A stretch of DNA of 64,000 nucleotides from Thalassobaculaceae bacterium (GCA_965228875.1 OZ245843.1:4570616-4634615); one strand, 5' to 3'; positions 19,793-48,019 are shown, numbered from the stretch's first letter. The notes: generated by a model from the sequence alone, not told the origin. Program-made: numbers and translations.

Positions 19793-21259
19793 CTACCGCG
19801 CGCGTATCCGTGCGATGAAGCTGTCGATCAGACGTTCGTACAGCTTGTCCTTCAACACCTTGTCCTCGACGCCCTGGTCGATGTTCGGGTTGTCGTTCAC
19901 CTCGACCACGAAGACGCCGCGGTCGTTCTGCTTCAGGTCGACGCCATACAGCCCGTTGCCCATCAGGTTCGCGGCCTTCATCGCCACGTCGAGCACGTCC
20001 TTGGGCGAGTCCTCCACCGCGAAGGTGGCGAAGCCGCCGGATTTGCCGCGTCCAGTGGCGCCGTGGTTGTAGATCTGCCAGTGCTTCGGCGCCATCCTGT
20101 ACTGGGAGACGAAGAGTGGCTGGCCGTCCAGCACGCCGACGCGCCAGTCGAACTCGGTGGGCATGAACTCCTGGGCCAGGATCAGGTCGCTGTCGGCGAA
20201 CAGCGTCTTGGCGATCCGCTTCAGCTCCGTCGTGGTCTCGGCCTTGAACACGCCGCGCGAGAACGAGCCGTCCGGGATCTTCAGCACGATCGGCAGGCCG
20301 AGTTCGTCGGGTGCGGCGGCGAGGCCGCGCTGGTCGAGAACCAGGGTCTTCGGCGCGGGCACACGCTTCGCCGCCAGGGTCTCCGCCAGGTAGACCTTGT
20401 TGGTACAGCGCAGCATCGAGATCGGGTCGTCTATCACCGGCATGCCTTCGTCCTCGGCCTTGCGGGCGAACCGCCAGGTCGGATTGTCGAGCGCGGTGGT
20501 CATCCGGATGAACAGGGCGTCGAACTCGGACAGCCGGGCATAGTCGCGCGTGCGGATGCGCTCGACCGATACGCCCATGCGCGCGCCCACGCGTTCCAGC
20601 GCGTCCAGGGCCTTGGGATCCGACGGCGGCAGCGCCTCCTTGGGGTCGTGGAGCACGGCAAGGGTATGGCGCACCGGTCTGCGGGCGGAGGGATCGCGCC
20701 ACTCGCGACGGGTATGGGCGTCCAGGGCGGCGGCGAAGGGCTCGTGCTCGTCGGCGCGCAACTCGTCGACGGTGCGCTGGCTGACCGCCCGGACATAGAA
20801 GCCCCAGGTGGCGTCCAGGGTGACCTTGACGCGCAGGATCGGGGCGCGGAACCGGTCGAACGCCTCGCGGGCCACGCGGGCGAAGCGGGAATCGGCGGTG
20901 CGGCCGAAATAGACGTCGATCGAGAACGAGGCCTCGGGCGGCTCTTTGATCCGGCTGAGCGCGCGCAGCAGGACCTGCTCGACCGCCCGCACCCCCGTCC
21001 ACATCCGTCCCCGGTCCTTGAGGGCGAGGATCGTCGCCGCCGTCGGCAGCACCTTGTGGCCGCGCGCGTCGGCAAGGAGCGAGGCGTAGTACCCGCGGCC
21101 GAGATAGACCAGGTCGCGCGACAGGTTGATGATCCGCACCGGTCCCTTTCCGGCCGCCTTCGGGTCGGTCAGGTAGTCCGAGGTGGCGACCACGCGCAGA
21201 CCCTCCGGCGCGGTCGGCAGGTCGCCCGGACGATCGACCAGGATCACGGGTTGCGTCAT
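19793..21259 (-). CDS. RimK-family ATP-grasp ligase with N-terminal RLAN-like domain
   Basis: IINLSRDLVYLGRGYYASLLADARGHKVLP; CTNKVYLAE, VLKIPDGSFSRGV, QEFMPTEFDWRVGV, YGVDLK, EVNDNP. Confidence 0.9.
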   Translation of the reverse strand: MTQPVILVDRPGDLPTAPEGLRVVATSDYLTDPKAAGKGPVRIINLSRDLVYLGRGYYASLLADARGHKVLPTAATILALKDRGRMWTGVRAVEQVLLRALSRIKEPPEASFSIDVYFGRTADSRFARVAREAFDRFRAPILRVKVTLDATWGFYVRAVSQRTVDELRADEHEPFAAALDAHTRREWRDPSARRPVRHTLAVLHDPKEALPPSDPKALDALERVGARMGVSVERIRTRDYARLSEFDALFIRMTTALDNPTWRFARKAEDEGMPVIDDPISMLRCTNKVYLAETLAAKRVPAPKTLVLDQRGLAAAPDELGLPIVLKIPDGSFSRGVFKAETTTELKRIAKTLFADSDLILAQEFMPTEFDWRVGVLDGQPLFVSQYRMAPKHWQIYNHGATGRGKSGGFATFAVEDSPKDVLDVAMKAANLMGNGLYGVDLKQNDRGVFVVEVNDNPNIDQGVEDKVLKDKLYERLIDSFIARIRAR

Positions 21260-22395
21260 GACGTCTCTCCCGGCGCAACATAGACCACGGCCTGCAGGCG
21301 GGACCGCCCGAAGCGGGCCATGGAGGTGAAGGCCGTGCGCGGAATCGGCACGTGGGTGCAGTCGACATCGGTCTTCATCAGGTCCTCGTCCATGTCGGGA
21401 TCGTGCACCAGAATGAAGCGGTCATCGACCCCGGTGACAACGACCCAGTGGGGCGCCTTCTCGTCGTTGAAGCGGTAGGAACTGACCAGCAGCAGCGGGA
21501 TCCAGCCGGCCTCCAGCGCGCGCTCCAGGTCCTCCGGGGACGAGGGCGTGATCTCGGCTTCCAGCCCCGCTGCCGCCAGGTCCGTCAGCAGCATGGCGTG
21601 AACCCGCTCCAGAACCTGCTTCTTCGCCGGAGCGCGGACCGTGTCGAGGAATAGCGGCCCGTCCTCGCTGACGCAGATCCGGACCCGGAAGCCGCGTCGG
21701 TGTGCGGCCAGCGCCAGACCGTGCGGCCCGCAGCCGCCATGCCCCGAGGTCATGAAGATCGTCGTCGCCTCGCGCCAGATGCGCAGCTCCTCGTCGGGAT
21801 CAGGGACCGAATCCGGCTTCAGGGCTGCCATCACCATCATCAGGCTGGCCGGCCCGCAGGTGAACTCGGTGGTCTGGTGAATGTAGGGGACCGGGGTGCG
21901 ACTCTTGGCCGGCGACCAGTGCAGCCGCTTCTCGTAGCGCCAGCCGTCGCCGTCGTCGTCGTAATAGTGCGGCAGGGCGCGCAGCCGCCGGTAGCCGAGG
22001 CGCTCGTACAGGGCGATCGCCTGGGCGTTGTCGGCGCGAACCTCCAGGCGCAGCGCGACGCAGTCGTGGGCGCGCGCCTCGACCTCGCCGTGGCGGACCA
22101 GCGCGGTGCCGAGGCCGGTGCCGGTGGCGCCCGGACGCACCGCAAGCGAGTAGAGCCGCGCCAGGGCGGTTCCGGCATGGAACAGGACGAGGCCATACCC
22201 GAGAACGGTGCCGGCGGTGTCCTGGGCGACGTAAAGGCTGGCCTTGGCGCGGGTCAGCATGTGGTTGAAGCTGCGCCGGGTCAGCCGGTCGGAGTCGAAG
22301 CAGGTGGCCTCGATCTTCAGCAGCGCCGGGATGTCGGCGGTGCTGGCGGCCCGGATGACGGGGGCGGAGGCGGGCTCCGCGCGAAGCTGGCTCAT
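21256..22395 (-). CDS. GNAT acetyltransferase fused to peptidase C39-like (DUF3335) domain
   Basis: RLYSLAV...GTGLGTAL, LEVRADN..AIALYERLGY; then QTTEFTCGPASLMM and PHWVVVTGVD..HDP. Confidence 0.9.
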   Translation of the reverse strand: MSQLRAEPASAPVIRAASTADIPALLKIEATCFDSDRLTRRSFNHMLTRAKASLYVAQDTAGTVLGYGLVLFHAGTALARLYSLAVRPGATGTGLGTALVRHGEVEARAHDCVALRLEVRADNAQAIALYERLGYRRLRALPHYYDDDGDGWRYEKRLHWSPAKSRTPVPYIHQTTEFTCGPASLMMVMAALKPDSVPDPDEELRIWREATTIFMTSGHGGCGPHGLALAAHRRGFRVRICVSEDGPLFLDTVRAPAKKQVLERVHAMLLTDLAAAGLEAEITPSSPEDLERALEAGWIPLLLVSSYRFNDEKAPHWVVVTGVDDRFILVHDPDMDEDLMKTDVDCTHVPIPRTAFTSMARFGRSRLQAVVYVAPGETS

Positions 22396-23353: not shown

Positions 23354-23440
23354 CGTGATGCTGGGGTGCCTCCGCGACGGGGGCTGAGATCAGACCCATC
23401 GAACCTGAACCGGGTAACGCCGGCGGAGGGAGACGTCACG
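23354..23440 (+). promoter_or_regulatory. TPP (THI-box) riboswitch
   Basis: GGGGTGCC...GGCTGAGAT..ACCC..GAACCTGA.CCGGGTAACGCCGGCGGAGGGA core; P1 CGTGATG/CGTCACG; a downstream CTCCCC could pair with the GGAGGAG ribosome-binding site. Confidence 0.93.
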
Positions 23441-23514
23441 GCGCCTGCCGACCAGCCGTTCGCGACGCCGACCGACCGATCTCCCCCCGCACCCGCCCGG
23501 AGGAGTGAGACGTT

Positions 23515-24672
23515 ATGCGCAAGACCCTCGCCAGCCGCCTGTTCCTCGGTGGCGCTCTGCTGTCCCTCGCCGCAACCGGCCTCGCCGACACCGTCCGCCC
23601 GGCGCTGGCGGAGGATCCGGTGGCGATCTCCGTCCTGGTTCCGATCACCGGCTTCCTGGCGCTCGAGGGTACGGCCCAGCGCAACGGTGCCGTCATGGCG
23701 CTCGACGCGCCGCCGCCGGGCGTCGCCGTCACCTATGACGTCGCCGACACCGCCACCTCGCCGGAGGTCGCGGTGACCGCCCTGCGCCGCGCGCTCGACC
23801 GCCAGAAGCCGGTGGCCATCGCCGCGCCGATCTTCGGCACCCAGATGCTGGCCATGGCGCCGATCGCCGACCGCGCCGGCGTGCCGCTGATCACCGTCTC
23901 CGGCACGGCGAAACTGACCGAACTCGGCCATGACGTGGTGTTCCGCTTCTTTCCGACCGACGCGGTGGTGAAGGTCGCCCAGGCGCGCTACGCGGTCGAG
24001 GAACTCGGCATGCGACGTCCGGCCATCCTCTACCAGACCACCGCCTACGGGCAGAGCGGCAGGGCTGAACTGACGCGGGTGCTGGACGGTCTCGGCGTGG
24101 CGCCGGTGCTGGAGGAGGCGGTCGATCCGGGTGTGAAGGACTTCGTCCCGGCGCTGGAACGGGCGGCCGCCGCTGGGGCCGACGGGCTGCTGCTGCAGCT
24201 TCACTCCGGACCGACGGCGCTCGCCGTCCGTCAGGCCCACGAACAGGGGTTCCGGGGGCGGATCGTCGCCGGTTCCGCCCTGCACCAGCCGACGACGGCG
24301 GCTCTGGTCGAGCCCGCCGCGCTGGCAGGCGTGTGCGCCGAGAGCGCGTCCTCCCCGGTGTCGGAGACCAGCGCGGAGATCGCGGCCTTCGCGCAGGCCT
24401 ACCGCGACCGCTTCGATGTCGAACCGGATGCCTTCGCCCTGGCCCAGTATGACGGCATGCGGATGGTCCTGGCGGCGCTCGCCGACGGCGCGCGGACGCC
24501 GGTGGCGGTCAAGGACTGGCTCGCGGGCAACCGGTTCCGCGGCCTCGCCATGGAGTACGTGTCCGACGGCACCGGCAACATGGCGCACGATGCCGTCATC
24601 CTGTGCTTCGACGGCAGCAGCCGCACGCCCGCCGTGGTCAGGCGGTACGACAACGTCAACGGTGTCCGCTGA
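23515..24672 (+). CDS. HAAT/LivK-type ABC transporter substrate-binding protein
   Basis: Signal peptide; VLVPITGFLALEG, PLITVSGT, FRFFPTD, AYGQSG, QYDG (periplasmic binding protein type 1). Confidence 0.88.
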   Translation: MRKTLASRLFLGGALLSLAATGLADTVRPALAEDPVAISVLVPITGFLALEGTAQRNGAVMALDAPPPGVAVTYDVADTATSPEVAVTALRRALDRQKPVAIAAPIFGTQMLAMAPIADRAGVPLITVSGTAKLTELGHDVVFRFFPTDAVVKVAQARYAVEELGMRRPAILYQTTAYGQSGRAELTRVLDGLGVAPVLEEAVDPGVKDFVPALERAAAAGADGLLLQLHSGPTALAVRQAHEQGFRGRIVAGSALHQPTTAALVEPAALAGVCAESASSPVSETSAEIAAFAQAYRDRFDVEPDAFALAQYDGMRMVLAALADGARTPVAVKDWLAGNRFRGLAMEYVSDGTGNMAHDAVILCFDGSSRTPAVVRRYDNVNGVR

Positions 24673-24699
24673 TCCGCCGGCCGCTGGTATAATGCGAGG

Positions 24700-25590
24700 A
24701 TGGTCGAAACCACGGTCCAGCTTCTGGCGACTGCCCTTGCTCTCGGATCGGCCTATGCGCTGACGACGCTTGGATTCGTGCTGATCATCAACGCCGTCGG
24801 CGCGGTCAACTTCGCCCATGGCGACCTGGTGATGGCGGGCGGATTCGTGGCCATCGCGCTCTCCCTGCTGCTGCCGGAGGGGCTGCCCGCGCCGGGGCTG
24901 ATCCTGCTGCCGGCGGTGCTTGCGACGATGGCCGTCGGCGGCGTCGGGCTGGCGGCGGTGGCCTATGTGCCGCTGCGCCGGGCACCACCGGTCTCCGTTT
25001 TCATCTCGACCATCGCCATCGGCCTGATCCTGCAGCATGGGATCACCCTCGGCGCTGGCCCGCAGCCGCGCGTCGGCCCGACCGTCGCCGGCGATGGGCT
25101 GATCGCCCTGGCGGGCGCTGCCCTGTCGTACCAGCAGGTGGCCACCGTGGTGGTGGCCGGCGTGCTCTGCGCGGCGGTGCATGTCCTGCTGAACCGGACC
25201 CGGTTCGGCCGCCGGTTGCGCGCCGCTGCCCAGGATCCGGAGATGGCGCGGGCCTGCGGCATCGACCTCCGCCTCACGATCGGCGCCACCTTCGCGCTCG
25301 CCGGCGCGCTTGCCGGTGCGGCGGGGCTGCTGCTGTCCAACCAGTACTTCGTCACCCCGACCGATGGTGCCGGGTTCATGCTCAAGGCCTACATCGCCAC
25401 CGTCATCGGCGGCTGGGGCCGCGTGTGGGGCGCGGCGCTCGCGGCGCTCGGCATCGCGGTGTTCGAGGTGCTGGTCGCCGCCGCCGTGTCCTACCTGATG
25501 GCCGAGGCGCTGCTCTATCTCGGCGTGCTGGTTCTGCTGATGGTGCGCCCTCAGGGCCTGTTCGGCGAGATCGAGGGCCGACGCGCATGA
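24700..25590 (+). CDS. LivH-type ABC permease
   Basis: GSAYALTTLGF, VNFAHGD, TRFGRRLRAAAQDPEMARACGI, IGGWG, RPQGLFG. Confidence 0.9.
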   Translation: MVETTVQLLATALALGSAYALTTLGFVLIINAVGAVNFAHGDLVMAGGFVAIALSLLLPEGLPAPGLILLPAVLATMAVGGVGLAAVAYVPLRRAPPVSVFISTIAIGLILQHGITLGAGPQPRVGPTVAGDGLIALAGAALSYQQVATVVVAGVLCAAVHVLLNRTRFGRRLRAAAQDPEMARACGIDLRLTIGATFALAGALAGAAGLLLSNQYFVTPTDGAGFMLKAYIATVIGGWGRVWGAALAALGIAVFEVLVAAAVSYLMAEALLYLGVLVLLMVRPQGLFGEIEGRRA

Positions 25591-25600
25591 GGGTGCGCCG

Positions 25601-27274
25601 GTGATCGCGCAGTCGTACCGCCGCGGGGCTGCCTATGTCGCGGCCATCGCCGCCGCCGCCGTCCTGCTGATCGCGTTCGGCGATGGCTATGCGCTGCGCG
25701 TCGCCACCCTGGTCGGCATCTACGCGATCGCGGCGATCGGCTTCCAGCTCGTGTTCGGCCGGCTCGGCCTGCTGGCGTTGAGCCAGGGCGCGCTGTTCGC
25801 CGTGGGAGCCTACGCCGTGGCGTTGACGACGGTGGCGGGCGGCTGGCCGCCGCTGGCGGCGCTCGGGGGCGCGGTCGCCGTTGCGGCGCTGGCCGGTGCG
25901 CTGCTCGCGGTTCCGGTGGCCCGGCTGGAGTCCCACTATGTCGCCCTGGCCACGCTGGGCCTGGCGCAGCTCGTCCTCCTGGCGGTCACAAACCTGGAGG
26001 TCACCGGCGGCGCCAACGGCATCTACGGGGTGCCGCCGCTCACCGTGCTGGGCGTCGATCTCGGCGATGGCTGGCGGATGCTCGCGGTGGTCTGGGGCGG
26101 GGTGGCGGTGGCGCTGCTGCTGTTCGCCTGGGTGACCGGCGCCGGACGGGGCGCGCGGCTGGCGACGCTGCGGGACGCGCCGCACGCGGCCCTCGCCCTC
26201 GGCATCGAGCCGGTGCGCATGCGGCTGCTCACCTTTGCCGTCACCGGGGCGCTGGCCGGGCTGGCGGGCGGTTTCCAGGCGGTCGGCCTGGGGGTCGTCT
26301 CGCCGGCGGTGGCGCGGTTCGACGTGATGGTCGCGCTCCTGGCCATCGCGGTGATCGGCGGGCGCGGGAGCGCCTGGGGCGCGGTTGCCGCCGCCGCGCT
26401 TCTCGTGCCGCTTCCGGAGGTGTTCCGCGGTCTGGAACAGGCCTATCTGCTGGCCTACGGCGCGATGCTCCTTGCCGCGGTGATCGCGCTTCCGACCGGA
26501 ATCGACGGGCTGATCCGCCGGGTCCTCCCGGAGTCGCCGGCGCCGGTGCCGGCCGCCGAGACACCGCCCAAGCGCCGGGTGTCGGTGCTTCGGGTCGAGA
26601 AGGTGGCCAAGACCTTCGGGGGCGTCCGCGCGCTGGACGGGGCCGGGTTCGACGCCCGGGCCGGCGAGGTGACGGGCATCATCGGCGCCAACGGGTCCGG
26701 CAAGACCACGCTGCTCAACATCGTCACCGGCCTGGAGCGGGCGGATACGGGAACCGTGCGGCTGGACGCCATCCCCCTCCTCGGCCTGCCGATCGTCGCC
26801 CGCGCCGGCCTCGGTCTCGCCCGCGGGTTCCAGCATCCGGAGATCCCCACCGGGGTCGACACCCTCGCCGCCGTTTCCGTCGCCGCCACCCCCGCGCGGG
26901 GCATGGCCGCGCTCGCGCGGGTTGGCCTCGCCGACGTGGCGCGGCGGGAGGCGAGCAGTCTCGGTTCGGCCGAGCGGCGCCGGCTCGACATCGCCCGGGC
27001 GCTTGCCGCCGGGCCGACGGTCCTGCTGCTCGACGAGCCGGCCTCCGGTCTGAGCGCGACGGAGCGGGCCGATCTCGCCGTGCTGCTGCGCGCGCTGGCC
27101 GATGACGGCATGGCGGTGGTGGTGGTCGAGCACGGCATGGACTTCCTGCTGCCGATCGCCGACCGGCTTGTGTGCCTCGATGCCGGCCGGGTGCTGTCGG
27201 CCGGCCTGACGGACGCGGTGCGAAACGATCCGGCGGTCATTGCCGCCTATCTGGGGACGGAGGCCGGCGAATGA
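25601..27274 (+). CDS. Fused LivM-type permease / LivG-type ATPase
   Basis: HYVALATLG, TGGANG, IGGRGS, LPTGI; then GANGSGKTT (Walker A), LLLDEP (Walker B), VEHG, VIAAYLG. Confidence 0.88.
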   Translation: MIAQSYRRGAAYVAAIAAAAVLLIAFGDGYALRVATLVGIYAIAAIGFQLVFGRLGLLALSQGALFAVGAYAVALTTVAGGWPPLAALGGAVAVAALAGALLAVPVARLESHYVALATLGLAQLVLLAVTNLEVTGGANGIYGVPPLTVLGVDLGDGWRMLAVVWGGVAVALLLFAWVTGAGRGARLATLRDAPHAALALGIEPVRMRLLTFAVTGALAGLAGGFQAVGLGVVSPAVARFDVMVALLAIAVIGGRGSAWGAVAAAALLVPLPEVFRGLEQAYLLAYGAMLLAAVIALPTGIDGLIRRVLPESPAPVPAAETPPKRRVSVLRVEKVAKTFGGVRALDGAGFDARAGEVTGIIGANGSGKTTLLNIVTGLERADTGTVRLDAIPLLGLPIVARAGLGLARGFQHPEIPTGVDTLAAVSVAATPARGMAALARVGLADVARREASSLGSAERRRLDIARALAAGPTVLLLDEPASGLSATERADLAVLLRALADDGMAVVVVEHGMDFLLPIADRLVCLDAGRVLSAGLTDAVRNDPAVIAAYLGTEAGE

Positions 27275-27990
27275 CCGCGCGCCTGGAGCTGGAGGAGGTC
27301 ACGGTGCGGCAGGGCGACGGGCTGGCGGTCGACGGCGCCTCCCTGACCTGTGCCGCCGGCGAGGTGGTCGCCGTGCTCGGGGCGAACGGCGCCGGCAAGT
27401 CCAGCCTGATCCGCGCGGTCGCCGGCGCCGATCCGGTGGCCGGCGGTACCATCCGGCTGGAGGGCGAGGACATCACGAGCCTGAGCCTGGAGCGCCGGGT
27501 GCACGCCGGGATCGGCTGGTGCCCTGAGGGTCGGCGGCTGTTTCCCGGCCTGACGGTGGTGGAGACCCTCGACGTCGCCGCCACCGGCAATGCTGCGACA
27601 CGGAAGCGGTCGGTCGACCGCGCCCTGGAGATGTTTCCGGCGCTTGCCGAGCGGCGCGGCGCCGTCGCGTGGACACTGTCCGGCGGCCAGCAGCAGATGC
27701 TGGCGATCGCCCGCGCGGTGATCGCGGAACCTGCGGTCGTGCTGCTGGACGAACCCTCGATCGGTCTGGCGCCGGCGGTTCTCGATGACGTGTTCGCGAC
27801 GATCCGCCGGCTCGCCGAGGCCGGGGCGGCGGTGCTGCTGGCGGAGCAGGCCGTGCCGCGTTCCCTGGCCATCGCCGACCGGGCGGTGGTGCTGCGCCGC
27901 GGCGTCACCGTCCTCGACGTTCCGGCCGATCGGATCGACGGCGGCGTGGTCGCCTCGGCGATGCTGGACGCTGGCTCGGACGGCGCGTAA
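27271..27990 (+). CDS. LivF-type ABC ATPase
   Basis: GANGAGKS, PEGRRLF, LSGGQQQMLAIARA, LLDEPSIGLAP; ATGA overlap with the previous gene. Confidence 0.9.
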   Translation: MTARLELEEVTVRQGDGLAVDGASLTCAAGEVVAVLGANGAGKSSLIRAVAGADPVAGGTIRLEGEDITSLSLERRVHAGIGWCPEGRRLFPGLTVVETLDVAATGNAATRKRSVDRALEMFPALAERRGAVAWTLSGGQQQMLAIARAVIAEPAVVLLDEPSIGLAPAVLDDVFATIRRLAEAGAAVLLAEQAVPRSLAIADRAVVLRRGVTVLDVPADRIDGGVVASAMLDAGSDGA

Positions 27991-28022: not shown

Positions 28023-28709
28023 ATGACCGGCACACCCTCCCCCGACTGGCGCCGCAGCCCGGCCGAGACCGCGGCCGACATCCTGCTGGAGATCCAGGCG
28101 GTGCACATCCGCCCGGAGGAGCCGTTCACCTTCACCTCCGGTCGGCTGTCGCCGGTTTATGTCGACTGCCGCAAGATCATCTCCTTTCCACGCGCCCGGC
28201 GCCGGCTGATGGCGATGGGCGTCGACCAGCTCGCGACCCTTGCCGGCTCGGAGGCGTTCGACATGGTCGCCGGCGGCGAGACCGCCGGCATTCCCTTCGC
28301 CGCCTGGATGGCCGACGCGCTGGACCTGCCGATGCTCTATATCCGCAAGAAACCGAAGGGCTTCGGCCGCAACGCCCGGATCGAGGGCGAGGTGCGCGAC
28401 GGCGCCCGCGTCCTGCTGGTCGAGGACCTGGCCACCGACGGCGGCAGCAAGATCTCCTTCATCGACGCCATCCGCGAGGCGGGGATGCAGGTCGCCCACT
28501 GTTTTGTGGTCTTCCATTACGGCGTGTTTCCGCAGAGTGTCGCCGGCCTGAAGGATGTGGGCGTGGACCTGCATGGACTGTGCACCTGGTGGGACGTGCT
28601 GGCGGTGGCGGAGCGCCGCGGCTACACGGCCGAGCAGCTGGATCAGGTCCGCGCGTTCCTCGCCGATCCGGAGGACTGGGACGCACGGCACCGCACGGTG
28701 ACCGTATAA
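28023..28709 (+). CDS. pyrE: Orotate phosphoribosyltransferase
   Basis: FTSGRLSPVYVDCR, GGETAGIP, YIRKKPKGFG, LLVEDLATDGGSK (PRPP-binding motif). Confidence 0.93.
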   Translation: MTGTPSPDWRRSPAETAADILLEIQAVHIRPEEPFTFTSGRLSPVYVDCRKIISFPRARRRLMAMGVDQLATLAGSEAFDMVAGGETAGIPFAAWMADALDLPMLYIRKKPKGFGRNARIEGEVRDGARVLLVEDLATDGGSKISFIDAIREAGMQVAHCFVVFHYGVFPQSVAGLKDVGVDLHGLCTWWDVLAVAERRGYTAEQLDQVRAFLADPEDWDARHRTVTV

Positions 28710-47754: not shown

Positions 47755-47960
47755 CCCCCTCTGTCCCGATACCTGAAAGATTGACCGCGGGTGGGCTGCG
47801 GCTTTCCTCGTCGGTGGGGCGATCGCTCGCCCGCTCTCCAGAGTCACCTCACCTCGGGGTACGGGCGCCTGAGAGTTTCCGGGGGCGGTTGCTCCTTCGG
47901 CGGCGGCCGCGATCCGGGAAAAGAAGATACGGCCGGATCCGCCGCTCTCTCCCCCGAGGG
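47755..47960 (-). promoter_or_regulatory. Tandem glycine riboswitch
   Basis: Minus strand aptamer 1: GGAGAG...CCGAAGGAGCAA...GGAAACTCTCAGG. Aptamer 2: CTCTGGAGAG...CACCGACGAGGAAA...AATCTTTCAGG...GACAGAGG. Directly upstream of gcvT. Confidence 0.93.
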
Positions 47961-48019
47961 TCGTGGGTTATGGCATCGCAAAGGATACTGGACTTGCGTC
48001 CGCTTGCAAGCCCGAGCCG

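Follow-up and report, generated by a model that had tools for sequence, protein, structure and literature searches.

A thiamine pyrophosphate (TPP) riboswitch lies directly upstream of a four-gene operon for a Liv-type ATP-binding cassette (ABC) transporter in a 64,000-nt stretch of DNA from a Thalassobaculaceae bacterium (GCA_965228875.1 OZ245843.1:4570616-4634615), called the window below. The operon probably encodes an undescribed importer of a vitamin B1 precursor, because its pairing with the riboswitch is conserved in many Alphaproteobacteria of marine and soil origin that are unable to make thiazole. That the Liv-type system is a thiamine-related importer, repressed by TPP and used in thiamine salvage, is considered very likely. 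For the thiazole moiety as its substrate, namely hydroxyethylthiazole (HET), carboxythiazole (cHET) or a phosphate ester of either, the chances appear about even.

TPP riboswitch and Liv-type operon in the window

The search of the window by cmscan with Rfam 15 gave three matches in total, one of which was RF00059. This match scored 59.3 bits (gathering score, 54.3; E 4.4e-9) and covered model positions 1-105 of 105, and a search of the whole genome with RF00059 repeated the result for the aptamer. The aptamer ends 65 nt before the ATG of the binding-protein gene (position 23515), on the same strand as the operon. An initial annotation of the window had described a canonical TPP aptamer upstream of a four-gene Liv operon, and both the full-length Rfam match and the position of the aptamer agree with it.

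The cores CUGAGA, ACCUGA, GCG and AGGGA are all present in the aptamer of the window; the first three are the ligand-contact cores in the solved structures of the thiM and thiC riboswitches. Among 34 aligned aptamers, all from leaders of the Liv-type operon, the cores GGGGUG, CUGAGA, ACCC, GAACCUGA, GCG and AGGGA were invariant. Compensatory (double) changes were observed in 7 of the 18 predicted pairs, including the P3 and P5 stems; at the P5 column pair 95/106, for example, 19 sequences have CG and 13 have UA. Because of these invariant cores and compensatory changes, the RNA of the window is predicted to be a working TPP aptamer under selection and not a chance match.

The four genes together carry the complete HAAT-type domain set (PF13458, PF02653 twice, PF00005 twice and PF12399). 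In the fusion protein, Pfam placed BPD_transp_2 at residues 31-293, ABC_tran at 346-481 and BCA_ABC_TP_C at 530-555. The best NCBIfam models for the permeases and ATPases were UrtB/LivH, UrtD/LivG/LivM and UrtE/LivF, all under their equivalog cut-offs. The operon is thus predicted to encode a binding-protein-dependent ABC importer of the HAAT (Liv) family, which we take to be TC 3.A.1.4. Sequence and translation show that the start codon of the LivF-like gene overlaps the stop codon of the fusion gene (ATGA); the GTG at 27172, which an open-reading-frame finder gave as the start of this gene, lies too early and was rejected. The features are listed in Table 1.

Table 1. Features of the operon, its leader and its surroundings, in positions of the window
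Feature	Position	Strand	Evidence
TPP riboswitch aptamer, RF00059	23352..23449	+	cmscan, Rfam 15
CUCCCCCC tract, candidate anti-Shine-Dalgarno element of the expression platform	23481..23488	+	Sequence and folds; putative role
GGAGGAG Shine-Dalgarno sequence, 9 nt before ATG 23515	23499..23505	+	Read from sequence
Periplasmic substrate-binding protein, 385 aa, N-terminal signal-like helix	23515..24672	+	Pfam Peripla_BP_6 (PF13458), E 7.9e-49
LivH-like permease, 296 aa	24700..25590	+	Pfam BPD_transp_2 (PF02653), E 1.8e-34
LivM-like permease fused to LivG-like ATPase, 557 aa	25601..27274	+	BPD_transp_2, ABC_tran, BCA_ABC_TP_C
LivF-like (LivF/UrtE-type) ATPase, 239 aa	27271..27990	+	Pfam ABC_tran, E 9.1e-30
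pyrE (orotate phosphoribosyltransferase)	28023..28709	+	
RimK-like ATP-grasp protein with RLAN domain, adjoining a GNAT acetyltransferase-DUF3335 (C39-like peptidase) fusion	19793..22395	-	
Tandem glycine riboswitch	47759..47964	-	Two RF00504 aptamers, 63.5 and 45.8 bits

Conservation of the pairing in Alphaproteobacteria

The source genome is a single contig of 4.96 Mb, 100% complete, with affinity to Thalassobaculum/Thalassobaculaceae. For the relatives of its binding protein, one genome per species was scanned; 252 pattern matches were obtained, 100 were confirmed, and the best 80 of the 100 were used. These correspond to 79 separate loci, in which the identity is 55-89%; they belong to Thalassobaculaceae, Nisaea, SAR116, Reyranellaceae, Stellaceae and numerous other alphaproteobacterial metagenome-assembled genomes (MAGs). 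The four-gene set, including the permease-ATPase fusion, was kept in every locus long enough to hold it.

Upstream DNA was missing or nearly missing in five loci (L011, L032, L042, L044 and L068), which were excluded, and 74 genomes, referred to as carriers, remained. The RF00059 search revealed a TPP aptamer on the right strand immediately 5' of the binding-protein gene in 72 of the 74 loci. The scores of 59 of these aptamers were at or above the gathering score and those of the other 13 were between 46.6 and 53.6 bits; each of the 72 was reconfirmed on the locus sequence by a core-motif pattern or by cmscan. Only L079 and L082, both from Stellaceae, were without the riboswitch. A TPP match assigned to L079 by position proved, by cmscan and the position of ThiC, to be the thiC riboswitch on another contig. 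With 72 of the 74 loci showing it, the pairing of aptamer and operon exceeds chance.

In addition, 301 evenly sampled Alphaproteobacteria with a completeness of 90% or more were searched with a homologue cut-off of E 1e-60. A homologue of the binding protein was found in 20 genomes (the source genome counted) from about 15 families, 13 of them with a linked riboswitch and 7 without. As judged by identical coordinates, the same assemblies occur in both sets under two handles each (G144 = G040, G201 = G062, G326 = G033 and G116 = G073). One reduced genome of the same genus by label (G318; 1.5 Mb, 99% complete) yielded neither a binding-protein homologue nor ThiG.

In a quick maximum-likelihood tree, for which the support values are those of the Shimodaira-Hasegawa-like approximate likelihood ratio test (SH-aLRT) only, the nine homologues without a riboswitch occupied at least four separate places inside the riboswitch-linked family, several of them on long branches. 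This scatter within the linked family suggests an ancestral riboswitch that has been lost several times. The tree also bears on four contigs labelled as Akkermansiaceae or Flavobacteriales MAGs (L024, L056, L064 and L074): their binding proteins nest among alphaproteobacterial sequences, and these contigs are probably binning errors rather than transfers.

Thiamine pathway of the carrier genomes

In the source genome, ThiC, ThiG, ThiM, TPK and ThiB (TIGR01254) were not found, and the search for Thi4 returned fragments with the FAD motif only, while ThiE, ThiD, TenA and ThiL were present. Among the 74 carriers, ThiC was detected in 7, ThiG in 2, ThiM in 7 (each with its own TPP riboswitch) and TPK in none; ThiE was present in 70 and ThiD in 71. 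Thalassobaculum species with ThiM include T. fulvum and T. litoreum. ThiL was confirmed in the source genome only. Two carriers, G022 and G025, contain ThiB, which was not found in 73 of 75 genomes including the source genome, and ThiK gave no score above the cut-off in the five genomes tested. As a baseline, ThiG was found in 147 of the 301 sampled Alphaproteobacteria (146 of 300 when the unpublished genome G281 is left out), compared with 2 of the 13 in which the homologue is linked to a riboswitch and 3 of the 7 in which it is not.

Five carriers (G046, G062, G065, G069 and G070) possess ThiC, ThiD and ThiE in the absence of ThiG, ThiM and Thi4, the last of which was not found in any of the five ThiC-containing carriers tested. 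One of them, G062, is 100% complete and contains just two TPP riboswitches, at thiC and at the Liv-type operon. In three carriers, thiC stands alone as a monocistronic gene.

The source genome likewise contains two TPP riboswitches only, the second of which is located 5' of a thiX permease gene and an NMT1-type thiY. This second locus (L003 8170-10019 = C1:1200169-1202018, minus strand) has no ATPase gene after thiX-thiY; next comes a convergent gene for a class IV aminotransferase. In many of the other carriers the arrangement is thiZ-thiX-thiY. Around the other TPP riboswitches of the carriers, 74 regions from 59 genomes were taken, and three very short regions were left out. ThiX and/or ThiY was encoded in 53 of the 74 regions, corresponding to 51 of the 59 genomes. 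The remaining riboswitches precede thiM, thiC, a ThiBPQ-like system (G022 and G025), LuxE/LuxC-like genes or an EamA transporter gene.

The carriers thus retain the coupling steps catalysed by ThiD and ThiE, without either of the known thiazole synthases and mostly without ThiC, and after ThiXY(Z) the sole other riboswitch-marked uptake system is the Liv-type operon. These precursor-auxotroph carriers, together with the riboswitch linkage in 72 of 74 loci, support the proposal of the initial annotation that the Liv-type system imports a thiamine-related compound.

Some of the less common riboswitch neighbours were noted separately. In G027 and G031, the TPP riboswitch lies 5' of genes for a LuxE-like acyl-protein synthetase and a LuxC-like acyl-CoA reductase (L121 366-3013, minus strand; L124 431-3757, minus strand), followed in L124 by an ABC ATPase and ThiX, and in G012 a luciferase-like monooxygenase gene comes after thiY (L107 1445-2737, plus strand). 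Genes of this kind near TPP riboswitches may belong to a salvage step, so far undescribed, that acts on an oxidised thiamine precursor. In the Stellaceae genome G071, the gene of an EamA-family transporter (L158 345-1181, plus strand) directly follows a TPP riboswitch of 72.6 bits.

Substrate of the Liv-type system

The pyrimidine branch of thiamine salvage appears to be already served in the carriers, because ThiX/ThiY is riboswitch-linked in 51 of 59 genomes. The thiazole moiety is favoured as the substrate because the carriers with ThiC and ThiE and without ThiG, ThiM and Thi4 could use their own pyrimidine only if thiazole phosphate were provided. The gene content of the source genome and of 67 of the 74 carriers, with ThiE and ThiD but no ThiG, Thi4 or ThiM, implies that thiazole phosphate is obtained either by a missing kinase or by uptake of phosphorylated thiazole.

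Import of a pyrimidine compound alongside ThiXYZ, for instance hydroxymethylpyrimidine (HMP), aminomethylpyrimidine (AmMP), formylaminopyrimidine (FAMP) or another degradation product, is highly improbable, even though ThiC was not found in 67 of the 74 carriers, TenA and ThiD are present in the source genome and the binding pocket has gained an invariant Glu (described below), a residue presumably typical of aminopyrimidine recognition. A second pyrimidine importer would act beside a riboswitch-controlled ThiX/ThiY that most of the 59 genomes already have, the five carriers with ThiC and without ThiG make the pyrimidine and still keep the Liv-type system, and the thiazole branch would be left without any source.

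The main rival is the import of intact thiamine, or of thiamine monophosphate (TMP) or TPP, by a system that replaces ThiBPQ in the carrier lineages. It would account for the rarity of ThiB, the carriers are auxotrophs in need of some B1 source, the import of TMP would require only ThiL, which the source genome has, and the invariant Glu and His of the pocket with its aromatic residues would suit an aminopyrimidine or thiazolium ligand. We nevertheless regard it as unlikely. Since TPK was found neither in the 74 carriers nor in the source genome, and ThiK in none of five genomes tested, free thiamine would likewise need a kinase other than these. The retention of ThiE, ThiD and thiXY(Z), and of ThiC in five carriers without a thiazole source, would be left unexplained. 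In addition, G022 and G025 hold a riboswitch-linked ThiBPQ as well as the Liv-type system, and the latter is therefore not redundant with ThiBPQ.

Several observations weigh against import of the thiazole moiety, or against the link to thiamine as such. A recognisable thiazole kinase (ThiM) is lacking in 67 of the 74 carriers and in the source genome, where the other Phos_pyr_kin/ribokinase-type matches were PdxY and HldE only and offered no substitute. Thiazole import would therefore call for a further kinase or for import in phosphorylated form. A cationic or aminopyrimidine ligand would go with the invariant Glu of the pocket no less well than the anionic carboxythiazole, and the absence of ThiB from 73 of 75 genomes is also expected of a thiamine importer that replaces ThiBPQ. 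ThiG is present in two riboswitch-linked carriers of the class sample, G122 and G160. The initial annotation had looked to conserved riboswitches or thi/tenA genes at homologous operons as signs of a thiamine function: the riboswitches were found, but no gene for ThiX, ThiY, ThiE, ThiD, TenA or ThiM occurs within the 79 loci, so that the link to thiamine is drawn from the riboswitch and the patterns of gene presence. Finally, incomplete MAGs are numerous among the carrier genomes. Because genomes that are related do not form independent samples, the counts are given without a significance test.

Binding protein and its pocket

The Pfam matches of the binding protein were Peripla_BP_6 and ANF_receptor only, with no homology to ThiB (TIGR01254) or NMT1/ThiY. 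The LivJ/LivK-type NCBIfam model NF011933 gave 46.1 bits, against a cut-off of 477. No close paralogue was found in the source genome. The AlphaFold2 model (predicted local distance difference test score, pLDDT, 90.2) showed the fold of the leucine/isoleucine/valine-binding proteins (LIVBP), and Foldseek gave as its top matches LivK/LivJ-like and aromatic-acid binding proteins (16-26% identity). The ligands of the nearest solved structures are amino acids, oxo acids or aromatic acids; one of these structures, 4obb, contains 3-methyl-2-oxopentanoate. The model and the Foldseek search thus confirmed the fold and did not indicate the ligand, and a search of the ESM Atlas returned just unnamed or generically named Peripla_BP_6 clusters.

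The pocket was read through an alignment of 76 family members to E. coli LivJ, which is uncertain at about 20% identity. In LivJ, the residues Ser79, Ala100, Thr102, Tyr202 and Glu226, whose identities were checked in its sequence, presumably contact the alpha-amino and alpha-carboxylate groups of the ligand. In all 76 members, Thr102, the carboxylate contact, is kept as Thr131, and so are Tyr150 (Tyr178) and Phe276 (Phe307). Equally without exception, Tyr18 is replaced by Glu51, Ser79 by Gly108, Ala100 by Ser129 and Tyr202 by His230, and Glu226, the presumed contact of the alpha-amino group, is changed to Thr, Ser, Gln or Ala in 75 of the 76. Because the amino-group site appears lost and the pocket is otherwise near-invariant, the ligand is predicted to be no standard amino acid and to be the same throughout the family. 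The distinctness of the protein from the Leu/Ile/Val type is seen both in the failed LivJ/LivK model and in the lost Glu.

Most of the conserved pocket residues are retained in eight of the nine homologues without a riboswitch, in L079 and L170 without His257. The homologue of G147 is the most divergent (44% identity), with five conserved pocket residues changed.

These residues bear on a third explanation, in which the operon is a TPP-sparing device that responds to scarce TPP with the import of branched-chain amino acids or their 2-oxo acids. The synthesis of branched-chain amino acids needs the TPP-dependent acetolactate synthase, and a parallel is offered by the B12 riboswitches that switch on B12-independent enzymes. 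The system does belong to the Liv/HAAT family, auxotrophs would often be short of TPP, and a pocket that keeps the carboxylate Thr and has lost the amino-group Glu would fit a 2-oxo acid such as the one in the near structure 4obb. TPP sparing is still very doubtful, since the binding protein is far from LivJ/LivK by its model score, the thiazole gap of the carriers with ThiC and ThiE would need a separate explanation, and no precedent was found. A survey of 564 TPP riboswitch sites, in those of its parts that were available, contains two regulon categories only, thiamin biosynthesis and thiamin/precursor transporters (PMC3766115).

Leader and mode of control

The initial annotation had proposed that a C-rich tract could sequester the ribosome-binding site of the binding-protein gene. 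The tract CUCCCCCC and the GGAGGAG sequence were both located in the leader (Table 1). When the leader was folded without the aptamer, CUCCCCCC paired with GGAGGAG (z +1.38 against shuffles), whereas in the fold of the whole leader it paired with the 3' GGAGGGAG of the aptamer (z 0.05); neither fold was more stable than the shuffled sequences. When the duplex between linker and start region was tested across 65 loci, the median z was 0.12 and two of the loci lay at or below the 5% level. The elements of the proposal were thus present and their pairing was seen in the folds, but it did not rise above the shuffles in the window or across the 65 loci.

The two alternative pairings are compatible with a classic three-part translational switch. 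A scan of the leader found no terminator-like hairpin and no promoter. Among the sequencing runs listed as containing this sequence, none was of RNA. Because the leader has no terminator, control is probably exerted at translation initiation, with TPP probably acting as the repressing ligand.

In the proposed mechanism, the aptamer would bind TPP when TPP is high, and the leader would shut off expression. When TPP is low, the periplasmic binding protein would capture a thiamine-related compound and pass it to the LivH/LivM-LivG/LivF translocator. The pyrimidine moiety would be supplied by thiXY(Z) under the other TPP riboswitch of the genome, and ThiD, ThiE and ThiL would then assemble TPP.

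Relation to known transporters

Like the Liv-type system as proposed here, ThiXYZ is an ABC importer that depends on a binding protein, brings in a thiamine precursor (pyrimidine/FAMP) and is controlled by a TPP riboswitch, and it occurs in the same genomes. However, the folds and families are unrelated, NMT1 and BPD_transp_1 in ThiXYZ as opposed to Peripla_BP_6 and BPD_transp_2 in the Liv-type system, and the two co-occur without substituting for each other. ThiBPQ is also a riboswitch-controlled ABC importer for vitamin B1 (thiamine, TMP or TPP), but its proteins are not homologous to those of the Liv-type system, and it comprises one fused permease and one ATPase, whereas the Liv-type system has two permease and two ATPase domains.

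To our knowledge, ThiW is the only candidate for a thiazole transporter under TPP riboswitches, and it is known mainly from Firmicutes. Its proposed physiological role is the same as that favoured here for the Liv-type system. However, ThiW is the S-component of an energy-coupling factor (ECF) transporter, not a binding-protein-dependent ABC system, and is not homologous to the Liv-type proteins. It is a predicted ECF-type HET transporter and is named in PMC6478431 and PMC6593275.

With LivJ/LivK-LivHMGF of E. coli and other HAAT systems, such as UrtABCDE and the aromatic-acid binding proteins of Rhodopseudomonas, the present system shares the domain set, the gene order and the fold of the binding protein. 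It differs from LivJ/LivK-LivHMGF in the LivM-LivG fusion and the TPP riboswitch, and the identity of its binding protein to solved relatives is 16-26%. In public records, the relatives of the binding protein are named 'ABC transporter substrate-binding protein', 'branched-chain amino acid transport system substrate-binding protein' or 'EutJ'. These names are generic or wrong, and automatic annotation as a branched-chain amino-acid transporter had been anticipated for this system.

No report of a Liv/HAAT transporter under a TPP riboswitch was found in the literature searched in full text, although supplements elsewhere may list more transporters, nor was a description of the family as thiamine-related, which would have anticipated the proposal. 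In the available text parts and two supplementary files of PMC3766115, neither 'liv' nor 'branched-chain' occurs and genomes of Rhodospirillales are absent; the 19 transporter families of that survey are listed in its Additional file 5. In passages of PMC12452182 and PMC9870897, the matching terms have unrelated meanings. The genes thiB, thiT, thiY, thiV, cytX, ykoF, thiPerm and omr1 make up the lists of recent marine B1 catalogues in the sections available (PMC10881298 and PMC12998435), and in those of PMC10881298 the transporter list includes no Liv-type system. Riboswitch-marked importers of vitamin B1 or its parts are already known, and what appears new is the tie between the HAAT/Liv family and thiamine.

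cHET was established as a nutrient in PMC5899164, and its high-affinity transport systems are described in part of that paper as being of 'unknown sequence identity'. That the Liv-type system of SAR116, Thalassobaculaceae, Nisaea and many uncultured Alphaproteobacteria is this missing high-affinity bacterial cHET/HET importer is a serious possibility, which we would place somewhat below even. The system offers a testable candidate, as it is conserved, riboswitch-marked and found in genomes with ThiD and ThiE and without ThiG.

In the available parts of marine B1 surveys, thiM is the only marker of thiazole salvage (PMC10881298, PMC12442306 and PMC12998435). If the thiazole moiety is indeed the substrate, these surveys would misclassify the carriers as strict thiamine auxotrophs, because thiazole salvage is scored by thiM alone. 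As most carriers are without ThiM, a second unknown would follow in that case, either a non-orthologous thiazole kinase or the uptake of phosphorylated thiazole. Confirmation would change how types of B1 auxotrophy are assigned from genomes and metagenomes and would correct a systematic mis-annotation.

Neighbouring genes

The only widely conserved neighbours of the operon were a divergent tsaE upstream (21 loci) and a same-strand pyrE downstream (41 of 69 loci). In the window, pyrE follows 32 nt past the operon, and in one SAR116 locus the genes overlap. Since pyrE is the sole copy in the source genome, we read this context as old synteny through vertical descent. AP_endonuc_2, which had appeared as a second conserved downstream family, was rejected as an artefact of overlapping reading frames and is truly present in three loci.

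The pair of genes for the RimK-like protein and the GNAT-DUF3335 fusion is divergent from the transporter operon and was found upstream again in nine related loci. The tandem glycine riboswitch lies further downstream in the window, on the opposite strand (Table 1).

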